From a virus, in the UHGV virus genome UHGV-1371557: 37,452 nt of DNA; one strand, 5' to 3'. Below the pieces are notes generated by a model. The model was not told where the DNA came from. It ran no database searches and was given only the letters and a program-made list of their open reading frames with translations. Shown in pieces: positions 1-37,452 of this stretch. Within the stretch, counting starts at the first letter, position 1, and each line of letters starts with the position of its first letter. The position numbers and the translations under genes are program-made.

Positions 1-107
1 TGTACCCCCGAGCAGGATATGAAGATTATCTGATAAATGTAGGCGTAAGTGCGCAAGCCGTTACTACATACGTGATCTACCTGCCTCACCTATACATTTA
101 AGAGCAA

Positions 108-1457
108 TTAAAGTTCATTAGATGATACCTCTTTCCGTCCGTTATGCGTCCGTTGTGAGGACAGCAGCGGACGGTTGAACTTTTCCATCTCCTGCGCCTT
201 GAGGGTATCTGCGATTGCGATGTACGGACGCATCGTTGCCTCGGTTTTGTGGCCTGTATATTTGCGGATGACCTCAGAGGGGATGCCAAGGGTGAGAGCC
301 TGCACAACAAAGGTATGGCGCCCTATGTGCGAGGTCACGACCTCATACTTCGGTAGTGACTCCTCGATGCGCTGGCGACCAGAATATCGCAGGCGTGTGA
401 CGGGTGCGTCTATGCCCGCCTGCTTGCACACGCTTTTGATCGCTCGGTTTAGGCGTTGCTCTGCCATTGATGGAAGTGGCTTCTCCTCACCCTTATACTT
501 ATTGAGGATAGTGCGGGCGTGGTCGTTGATGTCCACCTCGATCAGCTGGTCCGTCTTCTGTGCGTAGTATCGTATGCTTCTCTCTGTGATGTTGTCGTGT
601 GTCAGCTTCTTCAAATCCGAGTACCGCAGGCCAGTGAAGCAAAGGAAGCAGAAGAGGTCACGTGCTATCTTCTCTGAATGCAGGCGTAGCTCTACCTCCA
701 TAAGTCGGCTCAGCTCCTCCCACGTGAGATATACCTCGGCTCTGTTGCTATCGATGCCCTTTAGGCGCACCTCGAAGAAACGGCGGTAAGCCTTCTCGTA
801 TAGACCCTGACCTTGTGCCCAATAGAGTGCGCTCTTTAATATGCGGAGTGTCTTGTCTACTGATCCATTGAGAAGCCCACGCTTCGCTGTTAGGTGCGTG
901 ATAAAGTCTGCCACCCACTTCTCGTCAATATCCTCCAGTGTAGCCGCCTGCGAGTAGTCTGCTATGTGCATACGTGCGGTGCGTATGTTCGCCAGGTGTC
1001 GCTCGCTCCAGCTTCGTCTCCCGCTCTCAGCTTCTACGAATAGGTCGATGAGTGCGACTATCTTGCGTTTGTCCTCTGGGCTTGCCTTTGCTGGAGCTTC
1101 TTTGGTCGTTCCCAGCGCTTCTCCGAGGTACTCATTATACTTTGCCTTTAGCTCCTCGGGAGTGGGTAGTCGCTCTTCCCTCTCGAAGTAGTTAAACGCA
1201 CTCTCGACAGCCTCCTCCGTGTACTGCAGCGCGCGGTTTATCATAGCGGCTGGCGTGCGTCTATCTCCGTGCGTCGTGTTCTTCATGCACCGCTCCGACT
1301 CGGCACTCCACTTGTCTGGCTCGACGCGGTAGCCTACATACACACTGGTTATATAGCCACTGCCACCTCCGTAGCGGATGCGGTAGCGGACTTGCAGAGC
1401 CTTCCAGCCTTTCTGCTTATCGAGGAGGAAGTGGCAGGTACGTCGTATAGGTAGCAT
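108..1457 (-). CDS. int: Tyrosine-type site-specific integrase (phage integrase family)
   Basis: ORF of about 450 aa at the left edge of the prophage. The C-terminal region has the R...H-x-x-R...Y catalytic pattern (HIGRHTFVVQALTLG ... GHKTEATMRPY) and the N-terminal region looks like a core-binding domain. The ORF-track start at 1499 is a TTG; the first ATG is at 1455-1457. Confidence 0.85.
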   Translation of the reverse strand: MLPIRRTCHFLLDKQKGWKALQVRYRIRYGGGSGYITSVYVGYRVEPDKWSAESERCMKNTTHGDRRTPAAMINRALQYTEEAVESAFNYFEREERLPTPEELKAKYNEYLGEALGTTKEAPAKASPEDKRKIVALIDLFVEAESGRRSWSERHLANIRTARMHIADYSQAATLEDIDEKWVADFITHLTAKRGLLNGSVDKTLRILKSALYWAQGQGLYEKAYRRFFEVRLKGIDSNRAEVYLTWEELSRLMEVELRLHSEKIARDLFCFLCFTGLRYSDLKKLTHDNITERSIRYYAQKTDQLIEVDINDHARTILNKYKGEEKPLPSMAEQRLNRAIKSVCKQAGIDAPVTRLRYSGRQRIEESLPKYEVVTSHIGRHTFVVQALTLGIPSEVIRKYTGHKTEATMRPYIAIADTLKAQEMEKFNRPLLSSQRTHNGRKEVSSNEL

Positions 1458-1476
1458 GTTGTGTCGTATTTTATTG

Positions 1477-1512
1477 TAAAACCATTTCGTTGAAGCCAAC
1501 GAAATGGTTTTA
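1477..1512. terminator. Perfect 15-bp inverted repeat (AAAACCATTTCGTTG / CAACGAAATGGTTTT) with a 4-nt loop, flanked by A/T runs. Candidate bidirectional terminator or protein-binding palindrome between int and the upstream gene.
   Basis: Read directly from the sequence at 1478-1492 and 1497-1511. The A4 and T4 tracts are part of the stem ends, so it could terminate on either strand. Confidence 0.5.
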
Positions 1513-4630: not shown

Positions 4631-4662
4631 TTTGGTAAGTCAACCAAATTGGTTTACCTTTG
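4631..4662 (+). promoter_or_regulatory. Candidate Bacteroidetes sigma-A promoter (TTTG-N20-TACCTTTG) for the Cro-like/early-right transcript, inside a divergent operator region
   Basis: TTTG at 4631-4634 and TAccTTTG at 4655-4662 with a 20-nt spacer. Inverted repeats read from the sequence: GTTGA...TCAAC (4625-4643), CTTCAA-AG-TTGAAG (about 4696-4709) and CAAAATTTG. Confidence 0.5.
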
Positions 4663-4749: not shown

Positions 4750-4965
4750 ATGGCTGAAATAAGAGTTCCTAAGAGCCACTCCGAAAAGTTAGATGAGCGC
4801 GCTCTCAAGATGCAGGCCGATTACCTGCGACTCCTGTCACAAGGCGGGGGAATTTGGCAGGTAAAGAAAGCCCTTGCCAAAAAATACAAGGTGTGTATGG
4901 TGACAGTCTACAGCACGCTCAAGCGAGCTGAGGAACTGAACGCAACCACCTCTGCCGAAGGCTAA
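4750..4965 (+). CDS. Cro-like small HTH regulator
   Basis: 71-aa ORF divergent from the repressor. Helix-turn-helix-like segment IWQVKKALAKKYKVCMVTVYSTLKRA. Confidence 0.55.
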   Translation: MAEIRVPKSHSEKLDERALKMQADYLRLLSQGGGIWQVKKALAKKYKVCMVTVYSTLKRAEELNATTSAEG

Positions 4966-5169
4966 GCCCTCCAGCGACCGCGATCTTTGACATACTTGAT
5001 ACAAACAATGGCGAAACGAAATAATCTGCGGGTGAAAGGCCCGCGCGTGATTAACCCATTGTAGTTAGTCTGTGGCCTATTGCGCACAGAGCGAAGCCGT
5101 GGAAGGCACGGAACACCCGAGGATCGCAATCCTCCTGACTACACATTAGTAACTACAAATAATACGGCT

Positions 5170-10012: not shown

Positions 10013-10606
10013 ATGGAATACAAACTTTACAACGCAGATACGCTCAACCGCTACGCCAAGGACTGCCACCAGCGGGCAGTAGCTAAAGGCTTTTGGGATG
10101 AGCAACACTCCGTCGGGCATTATCTGATGCTGGCCTTCGGAGAGCTTCACGAGGCTATCGAAGCAGACCGCATCGGGAAGTGGGCAAAGCTCGACCCCGA
10201 CACGATAGACACACTCCAGCGTATAGCGGGTGCGCCCTATACTCAAGAGTTCCTACGTGAGATCAAGGACACCGTGGAGGACGAGATTGCCGACGCAGTG
10301 ATACGCCTGCTCGACCTGCTGGGGTGGATTATCGGAGATAGGACACTTGCAGGCTTTGAGGTGAATGTCGGGCGAGGTGCATATGAGAAGGAAGAGCCAC
10401 CAGTTATGCTCACAGATGCCCTCTTCCCGATCATAGCGAATGCTTCTGACAATTTGATCTTCAGCAACACAACGGCAGGCATCCTAAACTCCATAAAGAC
10501 GCTCGAACAGCTCTGCGACCACCTCGGCATCGACCTGATGGCGCACATCGACCTCAAGCTGAAGTGCAACGAAACACGCCCTGCGAAGCACGGGAAGAAA
10601 TACTAA
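10013..10606 (+). CDS. MazG-like nucleotide pyrophosphohydrolase
   Basis: MazG/HisE-like EAIEAD ... EIADAVIRLLDL pattern. Common in phages. Confidence 0.55.
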   Translation: MEYKLYNADTLNRYAKDCHQRAVAKGFWDEQHSVGHYLMLAFGELHEAIEADRIGKWAKLDPDTIDTLQRIAGAPYTQEFLREIKDTVEDEIADAVIRLLDLLGWIIGDRTLAGFEVNVGRGAYEKEEPPVMLTDALFPIIANASDNLIFSNTTAGILNSIKTLEQLCDHLGIDLMAHIDLKLKCNETRPAKHGKKY

Positions 10607-20542: not shown

Positions 20543-20917
20543 TTAGTCGATTCTTCTCGTTCCGAGTGGTGCGGCTGCCGCTGGTAGGTCTGTATCTACC
20601 TCTACGTAGTCCCATCCTGTGCCGCAATGGTCTACGAGCAGTACCCACAGATCCAGTTTTTCACTGTATGCGAACATGAGGCCAAAGTGCTCATGCAGGA
20701 ACTCGCAAAGGTCTTCGCTGCAGTTGGTTATGTAGTATTGGTAGATTTCTGGGTACTCTTCCGTCTCTTCGTCACACTCGTATCCGATTGTAGTGTACAT
20801 TAGCTCATCGTCGATATAGGCGATGTTGTTGCATAGGATAGTAGTGCATCCTGCCCAGCTGGCAGCGACGGCGTACGTGGTAGCGTAGGTCGTTTGGTTG
20901 GTCTGATTAGTTTCCAT
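20543..20917 (-). CDS. Small strongly acidic protein (124 aa, about 22 Asp/Glu against 3 Lys/Arg), first gene of the moron unit
   Basis: ATG start (METNQTNQ...). The composition was counted from the translation. Confidence 0.7.
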   Translation of the reverse strand: METNQTNQTTYATTYAVAASWAGCTTILCNNIAYIDDELMYTTIGYECDEETEEYPEIYQYYITNCSEDLCEFLHEHFGLMFAYSEKLDLWVLLVDHCGTGWDYVEVDTDLPAAAAPLGTRRID

Positions 20918-20924
20918 ACCTTTG
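20893..20924 (+). promoter_or_regulatory. Consensus Bacteroidetes promoter (TTTG-N20-TACCTTTG) on the plus strand, overlapping the start codon of the minus-strand moron gene
   Basis: TTTG at 20893-20896, TAccTTTG at 20917-20924. Confidence 0.5.
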
Positions 20925-20946
20925 TAATGATTTTAAGAAAAAGTTT

Positions 20947-20984
20947 GCCCCGTTGTTCGTTGTGAAACGCGCGCGGGGCTTTTT
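20947..20984 (+). terminator. Intrinsic terminator: GCCCCG...CGGGGC followed directly by TTTTT. It sits about 25 nt downstream of the plus-strand promoter and inside the 5' leader of the minus-strand moron transcript.
   Basis: Stem 20947-20952 / 20974-20979, T5 at 20980-20984. On the minus strand the stem is followed by AAACUUUUUCUU, a weaker U-tract. Confidence 0.55.
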
Positions 20985-21036
20985 GCGTTCGTTTCCGTTC
21001 CAAAGTCTGAGGGCGTTTCCCCCTTTCTTTGTACTA

Positions 21037-33716: not shown

Positions 33717-34163
33717 ATGTTTAAATTCTTTTCCCCCGAAGAGGCGTATGAGACGGCGACGCTGATGGCGGTAGCCATGCTCATCGTATTGGCCGCCGTG
33801 ATCGTCGACACGATCACAGGCATAATGAGAGCGAAGCGTAACAAGCAGGTGATCCAGTCGAGCATCGCGCGCCGTGTCTTCGGCAAGCTCATCAGGTACT
33901 ACCTCGTCATCGCCATATTCGCGTTCATCGACGTCCTTCTGTTCATAATCGACTTCGAGGTGCGCATATCGATCCCCGAGCTTCCCTATATGACTGTCTT
34001 TGCGTCGATCGGGGCAGTCGCCACGGAGGGCTGGAGCGTTTGGGAAAACCTCCCCAAGCACGATACTACCTCGATCAAGAACAGCGCCAAACAGACGCAG
34101 GAGCTGGCAAAGGAGCTGGCAAAGGCGCTGAATGAAGTCCGTAACCTCGCAAAAGCAGAATAG
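33717..34163 (+). CDS. Holin (phage-holin-4-like; D-x-ITG motif)
   Basis: 148 aa. TM segments and DTITGIMRAKRNKQVIQSSIARRVFGKLIRY, typical of LL-H/Bacillus-type holins. The endolysin gene is adjacent. Confidence 0.6.
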   Translation: MFKFFSPEEAYETATLMAVAMLIVLAAVIVDTITGIMRAKRNKQVIQSSIARRVFGKLIRYYLVIAIFAFIDVLLFIIDFEVRISIPELPYMTVFASIGAVATEGWSVWENLPKHDTTSIKNSAKQTQELAKELAKALNEVRNLAKAE

Positions 34164-34166
34164 ACT

Positions 34167-34607
34167 ATGAGCAAGTATTTCACCCTCGAGGAGCTGACGC
34201 GAAGCCAAACGGCCGCGCGCCTCGGAAAAGACAACACCCCCAACGCCACGCAGAAGCGCGACCTCCTGCGACTGATTGACTACCTCGACGGCATCCGCGA
34301 GGAGTTCGGAGAGCCCATCAAGGTGACCTCGGGCTTCCGAAGCTGGGACGTAAACCACGCCGTCGGTGGCGTGAAGAAGAGCCAGCATCTCGCTGGGCAG
34401 GCTGCTGACATCGTACCAGCGAAGAGACCAGAGCGTCTTCGCGATCTGTTCGACATCATCCGCAAGCGCGGAGGCTTCCAGCAGGTCATCTACGAGCGAA
34501 AGGGGCAGAGCATGTGGGTACACGTAGCCATACCTCCGCTCGGCGAAATGCCACGGCAGGAGGCGATGACGACGAACGACGGCAAGAACTTCACCCGACT
34601 AAAGTAA
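34167..34607 (+). CDS. Endolysin, peptidase M15 family (zinc D-Ala-D-Ala carboxypeptidase-like)
   Basis: Pattern SGFRSWDVNHAVGGVKKSQHLAGQAADIV, with H...D zinc ligands. Confidence 0.8.
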   Translation: MSKYFTLEELTRSQTAARLGKDNTPNATQKRDLLRLIDYLDGIREEFGEPIKVTSGFRSWDVNHAVGGVKKSQHLAGQAADIVPAKRPERLRDLFDIIRKRGGFQQVIYERKGQSMWVHVAIPPLGEMPRQEAMTTNDGKNFTRLK

Positions 34608-34683
34608 CTAACACAGCAGGGCGGGCGGTAATGGGGTGACCGCCTGCGCCTGCAACCAACCACCCCGACCAAAACATAACTAT

Positions 34684-36318
34684 ATGCGACCATTTGGAAG
34701 TAAGAGCGACGGCAAGGCGCTCCAGCTTGTGCAAAGAGGTACGGACAAACGCATACCCGTGGAGCTGGTCAAACAGCCCTCGGGCGAGGTCTTAGACCCT
34801 GCAGAGCTGGAAGGACTGCACGTGATGGTGTCAAGCGAGAGCGGAGGTATGGCCACCATACCCTACTCCGTAGAAGACGGCAAGCTGGTGGTGGAGGTGA
34901 CGGCAGACATCTCCCGACAGCTGGGGCTGGGGGTCTACACGATGACCGCAACGGGGCGCATTCCCGACCCTGCGTATGCTGATGGCTACCACGACTACGA
35001 GATAGTAGTAGACCTCTGTAAGGTCACGAAGTATGGAAGCAACGAGACGCCCGTAAAGGTGCAGGCTAACGTGCTGGAGGGCTTGCGAGGTGAGAAGGGA
35101 GAGAGAGGAGAAAAGGGCGACCCTGGCGAACGTGGAGAGCAAGGCGCCCAGGGCATTCAAGGTGTCCAAGGGGAGCGCGGTCTGCAAGGCACCCAAGGAG
35201 TCCAAGGAGTCCAAGGAGTCCAAGGAGAGCGCGGGGCTGACGGTGCGGTAGGTAAGTCCGCCTATCAGTCCTATCTCGAGACGACCACCGACAACCCCAA
35301 GCTCACAGAGGCGCAGTATGCAGCAATCAACGCCATCACGACCCAATACCTCTATCGAATAAACAAAGGAAAGGATGCACCGATGAACGAACAAACCCTA
35401 TCGGCAGACCAGCTCATGGAGCTTGACAGCCACCGACGCAACATAATCAACGCCCTGCGAGCTAAGGGTGCACAGGTCACCGACGACGACGGTCTGGAGG
35501 TGCTGGAGGCGAAGATCGCGGCGCTATCATACAGCAAGATCACCGTTATCAGGGAGCAGCAGTTCTCGGACTGGCAGGACGATGTTTACCCACCAATGGT
35601 GGTAAGCGATACCTTCCGTCCTGTTAGTCTGAAAAATATGTTCGCACAAAACCCACGCCTCTCGCAACTGCCCGTTGTTGAGGGCGTCGAGAAAGCGCTG
35701 TATATCGACAGATACGCACAGCGTTGCCCGTCGCTTCGCTCGGTTGAACTCCCCGATCTTCTCGAGGTTAAAACGGCGACAACGATGTTTGATGGGTGCA
35801 CCTCGATGACCAAGGCGACAATAGGAGCCCTTCCTGCACTCACAAACGCAACGTGGCTCTTCAGTAACTGCCAGTCGCTCACGTCTGCCACCATTGGCTC
35901 AGCACCAAAGCTGGAGATCGCTCAAGGCCTCTTCAACAACTGTACCTCCCTGCAGAGCGTCACGCTTGATCTTTCGGGTGGGCTAATAACAAATGCATCA
36001 TACCTGTTCAATGGATGCGAAAAGCTGCGCTCAGTGAATGGCGTTATCGACCTGTCAAGGACGACAAATGTAGCCTCGGCGTTTAGTGGCTGTACGTCAC
36101 TCGAGGATGTGCGCATCAAGGGGATTAAGGTGAGCATTGACCTCTCCGCGTGTGCCAACCTCTCGCTGGAGAGCGTGAAGCACATTGTCGAGAATGCCCA
36201 AAGTGCAACGAACAAGACTATCACCCTACACAGCTCGCTCGTAGACAAGTATGACGACGAGCTTGTGACGCTCGGAGAGACAGCCACCTCGAAGGGGTGG
36301 ACAATCAATTATCGCTAA
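34684..36318 (+). CDS. Tail fibre/receptor-binding protein with a collagen-like Gly-X-Y region and C-terminal BspA-type leucine-rich repeats
   Basis: GEKGERGEKGDPGERGEQGAQGIQGVQGERGLQGTQGVQGVQGVQGERGADGA, then repeated units of about 20 aa (CTSLQSVTL, CEKLRSVNG, CTSLEDVRI). The ORF-track start is a GTG; the ATG at 34684 was used. Confidence 0.75.
   Translation: MRPFGSKSDGKALQLVQRGTDKRIPVELVKQPSGEVLDPAELEGLHVMVSSESGGMATIPYSVEDGKLVVEVTADISRQLGLGVYTMTATGRIPDPAYADGYHDYEIVVDLCKVTKYGSNETPVKVQANVLEGLRGEKGERGEKGDPGERGEQGAQGIQGVQGERGLQGTQGVQGVQGVQGERGADGAVGKSAYQSYLETTTDNPKLTEAQYAAINAITTQYLYRINKGKDAPMNEQTLSADQLMELDSHRRNIINALRAKGAQVTDDDGLEVLEAKIAALSYSKITVIREQQFSDWQDDVYPPMVVSDTFRPVSLKNMFAQNPRLSQLPVVEGVEKALYIDRYAQRCPSLRSVELPDLLEVKTATTMFDGCTSMTKATIGALPALTNATWLFSNCQSLTSATIGSAPKLEIAQGLFNNCTSLQSVTLDLSGGLITNASYLFNGCEKLRSVNGVIDLSRTTNVASAFSGCTSLEDVRIKGIKVSIDLSACANLSLESVKHIVENAQSATNKTITLHSSLVDKYDDELVTLGETATSKGWTINYR
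35193..35228 (+). repeat. Tandem 9-bp repeats (CCAAGGAGT, 3 perfect copies plus 1 variant) encoding GVQ triplets of the collagen-like region
   Basis: Read from the sequence. The repeats are in frame. Confidence 0.7.
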
Positions 36319-36338: not shown

Positions 36339-36536
36339 ATGGGAAAGTCAGTAAGAATTAAAGCCCCAAAGGGCAAGATGGTCGTATGCCGTGAGCGCCG
36401 AACGATCGGCAGGCTCGTCCGTACACGTGCGGAGGATGCACACCTCTATGAGCTAATGGACGAAGCGGAAGCTCTCGCTCTCGAGAAGCAGTGGAAGGAG
36501 GAGGACGAGGCTGAGGCTGGCGAGGCTCAGCCCTAA
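36339..36536 (+). CDS. Hypothetical small charged protein (65 aa)
   Basis: ATG start. Basic N-terminal half and acidic C-terminal half. Confidence 0.5.
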   Translation: MGKSVRIKAPKGKMVVCRERRTIGRLVRTRAEDAHLYELMDEAEALALEKQWKEEDEAEAGEAQP

Positions 36537-36541
36537 ATAAG

Positions 36542-36566
36542 TGCGCCCCACCGTCGGCAGGGCGCA
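36542..36566 (-). terminator. Hairpin TGCGCCC / GGGCGCA (7 bp, 11-nt loop). On the minus strand it is followed by CUUAUUUA. Terminator candidate for a short leftward transcript.
   Basis: Read from the sequence. The plus strand has no U-tract after it. Confidence 0.4.
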
Positions 36567-36645
36567 TGAGAGGAAGGGGCTGGATAGGATTTATCATGAG
36601 TACGAAATCTGAAAGCCAATCTCCAGCTCCAGCTCCTCTCTCCTA

Positions 36646-36676
36646 CAAAGGTAGCAAGCTGTGGCTATCTATCAAA
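36646..36676 (-). promoter_or_regulatory. Consensus Bacteroidetes promoter (TTTG-N19-TACCTTTG) on the minus strand, firing leftward into the 36537-36640 intergenic region
   Basis: Plus-strand CAAAGGTA at 36646-36653 and CAAA at 36673-36676. Confidence 0.5.
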
Positions 36677-36695
36677 GACTTAACACAGATTTACG

Positions 36696-37136
36696 ATGAA
36701 AACAAATAGACTAAGCTGGTGGGAGACGCTTCTTGTGGCCGTAGCCGTTGCACTGCTGGGCTACTTCCTGACCTCCTGCTCACCGAAGGTGCGGGTCGTC
36801 CCCGTAGAGCGGACGAGGGTAGAGTGGAGAGACCGCTGGCGTTTGGACAGCGTGTATGTCCACGATAGCATCTACCTAACCGAGCGTATGGCGGGAGATA
36901 CCATCTACAAGGTCAAAGAGGTGTACCGCTGGCGTGACCGCTGGCGGGTGGATACCATCAATACTGGGCGAGTAGATAGCGTACGCATCACCGAGGTGGT
37001 GGAAGTCCCCGCCAAGCTGACTGCGTGGCAGGATATGCGCCTCAAAGCGTTTGCGCCACTCCTCGCTATTGCGTTGCTTTTGGGTGCGTGGGTGTCACGC
37101 AGGCTGTGGCTACCGCTCCTTCGTGGGCTGCTATAG
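36696..37136 (+). CDS. Lipoprotein with a C-terminal TM helix; candidate unimolecular spanin (T1 gp11-like architecture)
   Basis: Signal peptide with lipobox LTSC (MKTNRLSWWETLLVAVAVALLGYFLTSCSP). Internal repeat RVEWRDRWRLDSVYVHDS / YRWRDRWRVDTINTGRVDS. C-terminal hydrophobic helix FAPLLAIALLLGAWVSRRLWLPLL. Confidence 0.6.
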   Translation: MKTNRLSWWETLLVAVAVALLGYFLTSCSPKVRVVPVERTRVEWRDRWRLDSVYVHDSIYLTERMAGDTIYKVKEVYRWRDRWRVDTINTGRVDSVRITEVVEVPAKLTAWQDMRLKAFAPLLAIALLLGAWVSRRLWLPLLRGLL

Positions 37137-37146
37137 CGTGGCATCA

Positions 37147-37166
37147 TTTTCGTGACCTCACGAAAA
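37147..37166. repeat. Perfect 9-bp inverted repeat TTTTCGTGA-CC-TCACGAAAA, 10 nt after the stop of the lipoprotein gene
   Basis: Read from the sequence. Confidence 0.5.
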
Positions 37167-37179
37167 AGGTCTGCTGGTA

Positions 37180-37210
37180 TTTGGTGGTATCAAAAAATTG
37201 CCTACCTTTG
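37180..37210 (+). promoter_or_regulatory. Consensus Bacteroidetes promoter (TTTG-N19-TACCTTTG) on the plus strand near the right edge of the prophage
   Basis: TTTG at 37180-37183 and TAccTTTG at 37203-37210. The spacer contains GGTGGTATCAAAAAA, which resembles the GTGGTGTCAAAA motif found upstream of two late genes. Confidence 0.5.
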
Positions 37211-37216
37211 CTGTGT

Positions 37217-37359
37217 AGATGAGTGCACGCTTCTACATTGTCCACCCTTCTGGGTGCTGAATTTGAACGAGCTTATGCTCACAGATGTACGTGATTATTT
37301 TCGTAATCTCGCAACGTCAAACAAGGGCGGGGAGGTGAAAACCTCCTCGCCCTCTTTTT
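37217..37359 (+). ncRNA. Candidate small RNA of about 140 nt, delimited by the 37180-37210 promoter and the 37325-37359 terminator
   Basis: Promoter and terminator lie 110 nt apart. The only in-frame ATG (37220) gives a 13-aa peptide. The ORF-track ORF 37152-37427 runs through the terminator hairpin. Confidence 0.35.
37325..37359 (+). terminator. Textbook Rho-independent terminator: GGGCGGGGAGG-TGAAAA-CCTCCTCGCCC followed by TCTTTTT
   Basis: 11-bp stem with one G-U pair, a 6-nt loop, and a T-tract at 37353-37359. Confidence 0.7.
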
Positions 37360-37405
37360 GGGAGTTCTGCATAAAAACGTCCGTGAAAGCGTCCGATGTA
37401 AATAG

Positions 37406-37442
37406 AAGCCCCTCTGCAAATCGCTGATTTACAGAGGGGCTT
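37406..37442. repeat. 17-bp hairpin with one C-A mismatch (AAGCCCCTCTGCAAATC ... GATTTACAGAGGGGCTT) and a 3-nt loop, at the window edge
   Basis: Read from the sequence and followed by TTCAATG. A poor T-tract makes it a weak terminator candidate; it may be a host or att-proximal structure. Confidence 0.4.
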
Positions 37443-37452
37443 TCAATGTGAT

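Follow-up and report, generated by a model that had tools for sequence, protein, structure and literature searches.

Phage regulatory RNAs are well studied in enterobacteria, and the right end of UHGV virus genome UHGV-1371557 raises the question of whether temperate phages of the Bacteroidales carry small RNA genes of their own. The window, by which we mean the whole stretch of 37,452 nucleotides (nt) that was analysed, is a complete temperate Bacteroidales siphophage integrated at the 3' end of a tRNA-Arg(CCU) gene. A first-pass annotation had proposed that two promoter-terminator pairs, one on each strand, delimit candidate small RNAs in this region; here these are called RNA A (minus strand) and RNA B (plus strand). 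Conservation of the promoter boxes, sharp boundaries, the lack of a conserved open reading frame (ORF) and strand-specific folding support that reading, and we think it probable that both units are genuine non-coding transcription units. Our confidence in the full explanation, in which specific mechanisms are assigned to the two RNAs, is lower and lies only a little above even. The units and the two genes next to them are as follows (aa, amino acids; bp, base pairs).

36339-36536, plus strand: 65-aa gene, an ORF and the upstream neighbour of RNA A
36535-36643, minus strand: predicted RNA A, about 108 nt (105-110), its 5' end set from promoter geometry to within about 5 nt either way
36542-36566, minus strand: terminator hairpin of RNA A, 11 bp with 8 GC pairs, tail CTTATTTAGG
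36602-36626, minus strand: invariant 25-nt stretch of RNA A, CUGGAGAUUGGCUUUCAGAUUUCGU, from the invariant columns of alignment A1
36646-36676, minus strand: promoter of RNA A, reading TTTGATAGATAGCCACAGCTTGCTACCTTTG (TTTG, 19-nt spacer, -7 box TACCTTTG), an exact match to the consensus
36696-37136, plus strand: 146-aa gene, an ORF whose leader is complementary to RNA A
37180-37210, plus strand: promoter of RNA B, reading TTTGGTGGTATCAAAAAATTGCCTACCTTTG (TTTG, 19-nt spacer, -7 box TACCTTTG), an exact match to the consensus
37214-37360, plus strand: predicted RNA B, about 146 nt, whose consensus structure comprises four stem-loops and the terminator
37324-37359, plus strand: terminator of RNA B, stem-loop 37324-37353 of 13 bp with 9 GC pairs, tail CTTTTTGG, CTTTTT

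Both promoters, which the first-pass annotation had called as consensus promoters, are exact matches to the consensus of the Bacteroidota primary sigma factor, sigma-ABfr (a -33 TTTG box, 19-21 nt and a -7 TAnnTTTG box; PMC7366714). When the pattern TTTG-N19-21-TAnnTTTG was scanned on both strands, the window gave five exact matches where 0.14 were expected, a number that none of 100 shuffles reached, and in all five the -7 box is TACCTTTG. Note that a sigma-70 type was rejected for both promoters, as a generic sigma-70 scan flagged neither and the phylum-specific pattern was needed. Related loci came from a search with the 146-aa protein, which gave 52 IMG/VR loci, and exact-word scans added more; the overall comparison took in about 90 related oral-metagenome phage contigs (labels of the L001 type denote related loci). 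The boxes of promoter A, TTTG and TACCTTTG, are fixed in 37 of 38 related loci, the exception being L033, whose TATCTTTG still falls within TAnnTTTG. Those of promoter B are conserved in every locus that has RNA B, the -7 box of L026 (TACATTTG) again staying within TAnnTTTG. The spacers between the -33 and -7 boxes vary across relatives for both promoters. Moreover, the pattern precedes a tRNA gene as well as mRNA leaders among the related loci, which argues that it marks real promoters in this lineage. Host-type consensus promoters would make expression from the repressed prophage plausible.

The terminators lie where they had been proposed. On the minus strand, the hairpin at 36542-36566 was said to carry a U-rich tail that abuts the stop of the 65-aa gene, and its tail (CTTATTTA, 36541-36534) in fact overlaps the TAA stop codon (36534-36536) of that gene; read as RNA (CUUAUUUA), this tail meets the scan rule of 5 T in 8. 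Downstream of promoter B, the 13-bp stem and T-tract constitute the strong terminator that had been expected there, and terminator tails are T-rich in all variants. RNA A would start about 4 nt past the -7 box at 36646, run leftward for about 108 nt and end at the hairpin abutting the 65-aa stop, a length nearer to 105-110 nt than to the roughly 90 nt of the initial estimate. RNA B would start near 37214 and end at the 13-bp terminator, and its predicted length is close to the 140 nt or so that had been suggested.

Both predicted RNAs are more stably folded than their shuffled counterparts (z = -5.25 for RNA A and z = -4.68 for RNA B), and in each case the stability favours the strand on which the promoter reads. 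For RNA A, 29 of 31 variants fold more stably on the minus strand, with a mean difference of 4.4 kcal/mol, and the terminator hairpin of the window has an energy of -20.2 kcal/mol on the minus strand versus -16.2 on the plus strand. The stem of this hairpin contains a U.G pair in 27 of the 31 variants and a G.U pair in 26 of them, which on the plus strand are C.A and A.C mismatches; variants that deviate at these positions have U-A, G-C or A-U pairs, apart from one with an unpaired U·U. The consensus fold of RNA A has a central stem, GCUGGA/UCCAGC, enclosing a loop, and the invariant 25-nt stretch spans the 5' half of this stem and most of the apical loop. That stretch, found as an exact 25-mer (CUGGAGAUUGGCUUUCAGAUUUCGU) in 42 IMG/VR stretches, may be a pairing or seed region. 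An extended stem joining the 5' and 3' parts of RNA A was considered and rejected, there being no consistent covariation in its favour.

For RNA B, the plus strand is the more stable in all 21 variants, by a mean of 10.4 kcal/mol, and three helices contain invariant G·U pairs that are A·C mismatches on the opposite strand. The RNA contains a 20-nt invariant stretch, and the terminator stems of L011 and L139 are changed on both arms with pairing kept. The diverged variant L139 keeps stem-loops 2 and 3, and in its stem-loop 4 the inner helix is swapped for an unrelated hairpin on the same outer stem. Two further observations concern the sequence of RNA B. The copy in L029 carries a 12-nt tandem duplication, GATTATTTGCGTA, within stem-loop 4. 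In the window, the 15 nt at 37273-37287 (TTATGCTCACAGATG, stem-loop 3 and its 3' flank) recur in the same (sense) orientation at 10404-10418, inside a 197-aa plus-strand gene (10013-10606), a match with a BLAST E value of 0.009.

The strand bias of region A bears on an alternative in which this region is mainly a structured plus-strand leader or processing site of the 146-aa gene, with the promoter match on the minus strand there by coincidence. The region does lie within a plus-strand operon, directly 5' of the 146-aa start, and its invariant stretch could equally reflect a plus-strand constraint. A plus-strand element, however, does not account for boxes that are fixed in all 38 loci bar L033 around a spacer that varies, for two minus-strand wobble pairs that become mismatches when read on the other strand, for a T-rich tail on the minus side or for the greater stability of the minus strand in 29 of 31 variants. 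In addition, an exact consensus promoter is very unlikely to arise by chance. We therefore consider this alternative quite improbable, and read region A as a minus-strand transcription unit.

Frame-shifting indels, missing stops and lost starts rule out conserved ORFs in both units; across variants, no ORF is conserved in RNA A on either strand or in RNA B. The RNA A region has indels of 1, 2 and 6 nt, and the plus-strand frame 36596-36709, which runs across RNA A, is frame-shifted in relatives and loses its ATG in several of them. As to RNA B, the first-pass annotation had allowed it a peptide of at most 13 aa, and here it needs correction: there are a 17-aa ATG frame (37285-37338), a 23-aa GTG frame (37223-37294) and a frame without a stop before the terminator, none of them conserved. 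Indels of 1-4 nt lie near the 5' end of RNA B, the persistent frames either shift or, in roughly half of the variants, run into the terminator without meeting a stop, and nearly all differences change amino acids; L139 is without the ATG of the most persistent frame. It is thus extremely unlikely, in our estimation, that one or both units encode a small protein, whether as a micropeptide or as a type I toxin paired with an antisense RNA. Points in favour of such a protein are the RNA B frames of 13, 17 and 23 aa, together with one beginning MLTDVRDY... that occurs in most variants, the fact that the 12-nt duplication of L029 is in frame, and a 28-aa TTG frame in RNA A; set against these are the frame shifts among close relatives, the missing stops, the ATG lost in L139, and the 1- and 2-nt indels and lost plus-strand ATG of region A. 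For a type I toxin-antitoxin pair in particular, no conserved small ORF was found opposite RNA A, where the 36596-36709 frame is not kept.

In both units, conservation runs from the -33 box through the whole of the terminator tail and no further. The RNA A region is 86-97% identical in 38 of the 52 related loci. The whole unit is absent, with clean boundaries, from 14 of the 52, in which a plain hairpin and about 17 nt are all that separates the stop of the upstream gene from the ATG of the 146-aa gene. RNA B is conserved in 22-27 of the 52 loci, and exact-word scans found it in 22 IMG/VR stretches and 40 metagenome stretches; its similarity starts at the -33 box and ends right after the terminator T-tract, with flanks that differ between loci. 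Both units have the anatomy of a moron, namely an added piece of DNA, flanked by conserved neighbours, that carries a host-type promoter and a terminator of its own and, here, no protein.

This pattern of conservation is relevant to the possibility that the motifs are real and the RNAs functionless by-products, the hairpins serving to end the late operon, insulate the prophage end and terminate the tRNA, and the promoters being spare or insulating. It is the case that the RNA B terminator is the first strong stop after a weak hairpin (37141-37174) behind the 146-aa gene, that another hairpin (37405-37443) clearly serves the tRNA gene, and that target searches in the phage came up empty. However, the RNA bodies are conserved as much as the promoters and terminators and contain the invariant stretches of 25 nt (RNA A) and 20 nt (RNA B). 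Moreover, relatives that lack RNA A cope with a plain hairpin, so that promoter and body are not needed for insulation, and L139 retains the fold of RNA B despite its sequence change. We regard functionless by-products as unlikely.

RNA A would be transcribed antisense to the spacer that separates the 65-aa gene from the 146-aa gene; these two genes are always adjacent and on the same strand. A strict scan of the window and the relatives revealed no plus-strand promoter in this spacer, reading of the window spacer revealed no near-match, and on the plus strand the RNA A terminator hairpin is weak and has no U-tract. The two genes are presumed to be co-transcribed. RNA A is most likely a cis-antisense RNA, and control in cis would be its simplest mechanism. 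It would be fully complementary to the spacer that late-operon transcripts cross en route to the 146-aa gene, and would act mainly in cis, either by forming a duplex with the 146-aa leader that is then cleaved or through interference by convergent transcription. Under either mechanism, RNA A would hold down expression of the last lysis gene or set its timing, and the invariant 25-nt loop may also serve as a seed for targets elsewhere. (An 11-nt match between RNA A and the start region of the gene at 2492 was rejected, as it lies in a part of RNA A that is variable between relatives.)

RNA B occupies the slot between the end of the late operon and attP. Three features of the window are needed to follow its surroundings.

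1-15, minus strand: attL, with the 15-nt att core CTGCTCGGGGGTACA, which matches the tRNA-Arg(CCU) 3' end exactly
108-1499, minus strand: tyrosine integrase, by protein family match
37405-37443, minus strand: second hairpin, -28.6 kcal/mol on the minus strand versus -25.2 on the plus strand

On the 3' side of RNA B there are only the second hairpin, the att core, the convergent tRNA-Arg(CCU) gene and a minus-strand host porin gene, and no plus-strand gene occurs for at least 900 nt downstream. This excludes the scenario, named beforehand as one that would speak against a small RNA, in which the terminator is leaky and the promoter drives a gene beyond the window. In L079, the human oral metagenome contig from which the window derives, the minus-strand tRNA-Arg(CCU) gene starts 2 nt past the window end. 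The attP or circular form, with the last window base joined directly to the first, is present in L009, L013, L046 and L050, and integrated junctions as well as an empty attB site were observed among related contigs. Taken together, the attP-form joins, the integrated junctions and the empty site L129 define an att core of 15 nt (CTGCTCGGGGGTACA) and the window end as the true right end of the prophage. The placement of both RNAs at that end therefore holds in part: the att core and tRNA-Arg directly follow the window end, but RNA A sits in an intercistronic spacer of the late/lysis operon.

At the empty site (L129 3277-3400, from a related assembly), the intact tRNA is followed by a different, native hairpin. 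Hairpin 37405-37443, read on the minus strand, directly follows the rebuilt tRNA-Arg(CCU) 3' end (L079 3759-3831, and likewise in L043, L019 and L052), which argues that it is a phage-supplied tRNA terminator that takes the place of the native hairpin; it would also halt read-through from RNA B. The integration site of this phage family is thus fixed as tRNA-Arg CCU with a 15-nt core, and the phage provides the rebuilt tRNA gene with a terminator of its own. As host we identify a human oral bacterium that is uncultured and related to Porphyromonas; the minus-strand porin in the host flank has 59% identity to a porin of Porphyromonas sp. oral taxon 275. TerL is 49% identical to that of Bacteroides phage Bacuni_F1, the closest cultured phage, and INPHARED, the GenBank phage collection, contains no nucleotide match to the RNA A/RNA B region. 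With nothing opposite or downstream of it, and in the usual slot for lysogenic-conversion cargo, RNA B is best read as a trans-acting small RNA (sRNA). Host RNA polymerase would transcribe it from the prophage as a regulatory RNA in its own right, and it would act in trans by pairing with mRNAs of the host or the phage.

Relatives differ in what occupies the slot behind the 146-aa gene. The window has RNA B alone; in L002, L004, L006, L008 and L011, RNA B is succeeded by a cassette of some 1.2 kb that holds two protein genes, and by another unit, RNA C, next to a different integrase; and in L044, L049 and L050, RNA C replaces RNA B. Compared with RNA B, RNA C has an almost identical promoter, a similar terminator and a different body. 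It is about 115 nt long (L004 4731-4878; also in L002, L003, L005, L006, L008, L011, L014, L018, L030, L044, L049 and L050), one of its stems shows a compensatory change (GCCA/TGGC versus GCTA/TAGC), and it adjoins attP or the stop codon of a different, 433-aa integrase. As a separate observation, RNA C contains a segment, UUACGUUACGU (L004 4785-4800), with a perfect 11-nt complement to ACGUAACGUAA (L004 4195-4210) in the leader of the neighbouring minus-strand 157-aa gene. This pairing was rejected as an RNA target, given that the motif is near-palindromic (ACGTWACGT) and that RNA C is found where that gene is absent too; a protein-binding site common to both sequences could explain the match instead.

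Proximity to attP might be taken to mean that RNA B controls integration, with integrase transcripts that cross attP being complementary to RNA B, as in a lambda sib-like arrangement, and this complementarity being lost in the prophage. In favour of this, the integrase gene of the attP form points toward RNA B and stops some 107 nt away from the att core, and in other relatives RNA C lies directly against the stop codon of a different integrase. Nevertheless, hairpin 37405-37443 should halt integrase transcripts before they reach RNA B, and RNA B is bound neither to one type of integrase nor to adjacency to attP, seeing that the 1.2-kb cassette and RNA C separate it from a different integrase in L002, L004, L006, L008 and L011. 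Integration control is for us a very unlikely role, and we retain regulation in trans as the best reading of RNA B. Rather unlikely, and broader in scope, is the notion that oral Porphyromonas-like phages carry interchangeable sRNA cassettes, in which RNAs B and C, which swap in the slot beside attP, would be versions of one scaffold with exchanged targeting bodies that reprogram the host, and that RNA A, apart from this, gates the last lysis gene as an optional antisense element. If that were true, the RNA A gate would be the first RNA-level lysis control, and the first phage small-RNA system, described in Bacteroidota.

Several points weigh against this explanation of the two RNAs. There is no significant covariation, the sequences being too alike: the alignments have 98.9% (RNA B) and 99.6% (RNA A) paired cells, changes on both sides of a pair number 1 for RNA B and 0 for RNA A, and shuffling gave no informative control. 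Support for the folds is therefore indirect and comes from thermodynamics, one-sided changes, strand asymmetry and variant L139. The terminator of RNA A has an interrupted U-tract. The 5' end of RNA A lies about 53 nt upstream of the 146-aa start codon and the start is not covered, which makes a direct translational block unlikely. For neither RNA did a target inside the phage rise above chance; exact complementarity of at least 10 nt within the phage is at chance level, and duplex-energy scans against all phage start regions, which are unreliable for long RNAs, gave no outlier. Among GTDB genomes, the 146-aa gene has only homologues of about 30% identity, in Paludibacteraceae metagenome-assembled genomes, and the flanks of these distant homologues are without both units. 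The 146-aa protein, taken up below, is a putative spanin by its architecture. Neither unit belongs to a family in Rfam 15, whether searched at the gathering threshold or permissively; the best hit in the region, Atu_C4, reaches 35 bits where the threshold is 80, and owes its score to the terminator.

The genes upstream of the two units place them in a lysis context, and a hairpin follows the 146-aa gene.

33717-34163: holin, by family match, upstream of the 146-aa gene
34167-34607: M15 endolysin, by family match, upstream of the 146-aa gene
34636-36318: collagen/BspA-repeat fibre gene, 560 aa, with collagen triple-helix and BspA-type leucine-rich repeats
37141-37174, plus strand: AU-rich hairpin without a U-tract, from folding, directly after the 146-aa gene

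The 146-aa product has an N-terminal signal peptide with a lipobox, LTSC, and by hydropathy a C-terminal membrane segment; it has no match in Pfam, PHROGs or NCBIfam. A lipoprotein of this build has unimolecular-spanin architecture, and the protein is thus a candidate for a new family of unimolecular spanins. It also contains an internal repeat, (W/Y)R(D/W)RWR(L/V)D, encoded at 36825-36847 and 36930-36952. The 65-aa product has no match in Pfam, PHROG or NCBIfam. The 560-aa gene comes after the holin and endolysin genes and before the spanin-like gene; since this position is unusual for a tail fibre, its product could be a surface or conversion protein. Hairpin 37141-37174 is weak and without a U-tract, and for this reason the RNA B terminator is probably also the final stop of the late operon. 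(The equivalent of this hairpin in L004 was flagged as terminator-like.)

Elsewhere in the window, a single Rfam family passes its threshold.

4982-5144, plus strand: DUF2693 RNA (RF02956), full length, 167.8 bits

A consensus promoter at 4631-4662, about 320 nt upstream of this RNA, heads a small regulatory-looking gene that starts at 4751. A third promoter-terminator unit lies at 20893-20985 on the plus strand, where the promoter (20893-20924) overlaps the ATG (20917) of a minus-strand gene and an irregular hairpin, GCCCCG...CGGGGC, is followed by UUUUU. The predicted RNA of about 55 nt would be antisense to the leader, of about 110 nt, that stems from a minus-strand consensus promoter (21068-21037) driving the operon 20917->19456.

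With precise predicted ends, more than 60 natural variants and relatives that amount to natural "knock-outs", the units are candidates for studying how temperate phages of oral Bacteroidales might control lysis genes or host physiology through RNA. The concept of the moron is reportedly due to Juhala et al. and Hendrix et al., both in 2000, and expression from the prophage is part of it. Like the morons of lambdoid phages, both units are extra blocks between genes that are adjacent in relatives, with a promoter and a terminator of their own; unlike classical morons, which encode proteins, they hold no conserved ORF.

Among known phage RNAs, lambda OOP and P22 sar are short RNAs that exert cis-antisense control of the kind proposed for RNA A (PMC12197685). 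RNA A resembles them in being short (the class spans 68-110 nt) and in having its own constitutive-type promoter facing the operon and its own intrinsic terminator, and it would overlap an intergenic or 3'-end segment of the message from the opposite strand. Like OOP, it has a 3' end that reaches the end of the upstream gene. It differs from both in host phylum and type of promoter and has no sequence relationship to them; its overlap with coding sequence is at most 2 nt, it does not cover the downstream start, and it belongs to the lysis/late operon rather than to a lysis-lysogeny switch. In genomic logic, both units are akin to the prophage sRNAs of enterobacteria. RNA B is comparable to DicF, StxS, AgvB/AsxR and IsrK (PMC12197685) in that it is short and non-coding, lies in the accessory part of its prophage and is plausibly expressed in lysogeny. 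Those RNAs are Hfq-dependent and proteobacterial, however, and StxS and DicF come from larger transcripts, whereas RNA B has its own predicted promoter. The review of phage small RNAs from which these examples are drawn lists none from Bacteroidota (PMC12197685).

By build, both units resemble the sRNAs of Bacteroides (GibS, other intergenic sRNAs, DonS-type cis-antisense RNAs and RteR), with which they share the promoter consensus, a size range of 78-145 nt and the layout of a start site plus a terminator (PMC7366714). In B. thetaiotaomicron, a mapped start site together with an intrinsic terminator marks high-confidence sRNAs, most of which have been confirmed by Northern blot, and RteR of CTnDOT shows that a mobile element of Bacteroidales can carry a small RNA (PMC7366714). 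Long seeds are to be expected in Bacteroidota, which are without Hfq or ProQ (PMC7366714). The two units differ from these RNAs in GC content (about 50% versus about 35% in B. thetaiotaomicron), in being phage-borne and in having no sequence or Rfam match to them, and their arrangement is other than that of DonS-type RNAs, which are divergent from susC genes. Set beside these systems, and judged by their predicted anatomy, RNA A and RNA B are credible phage small-RNA genes of a familiar kind.

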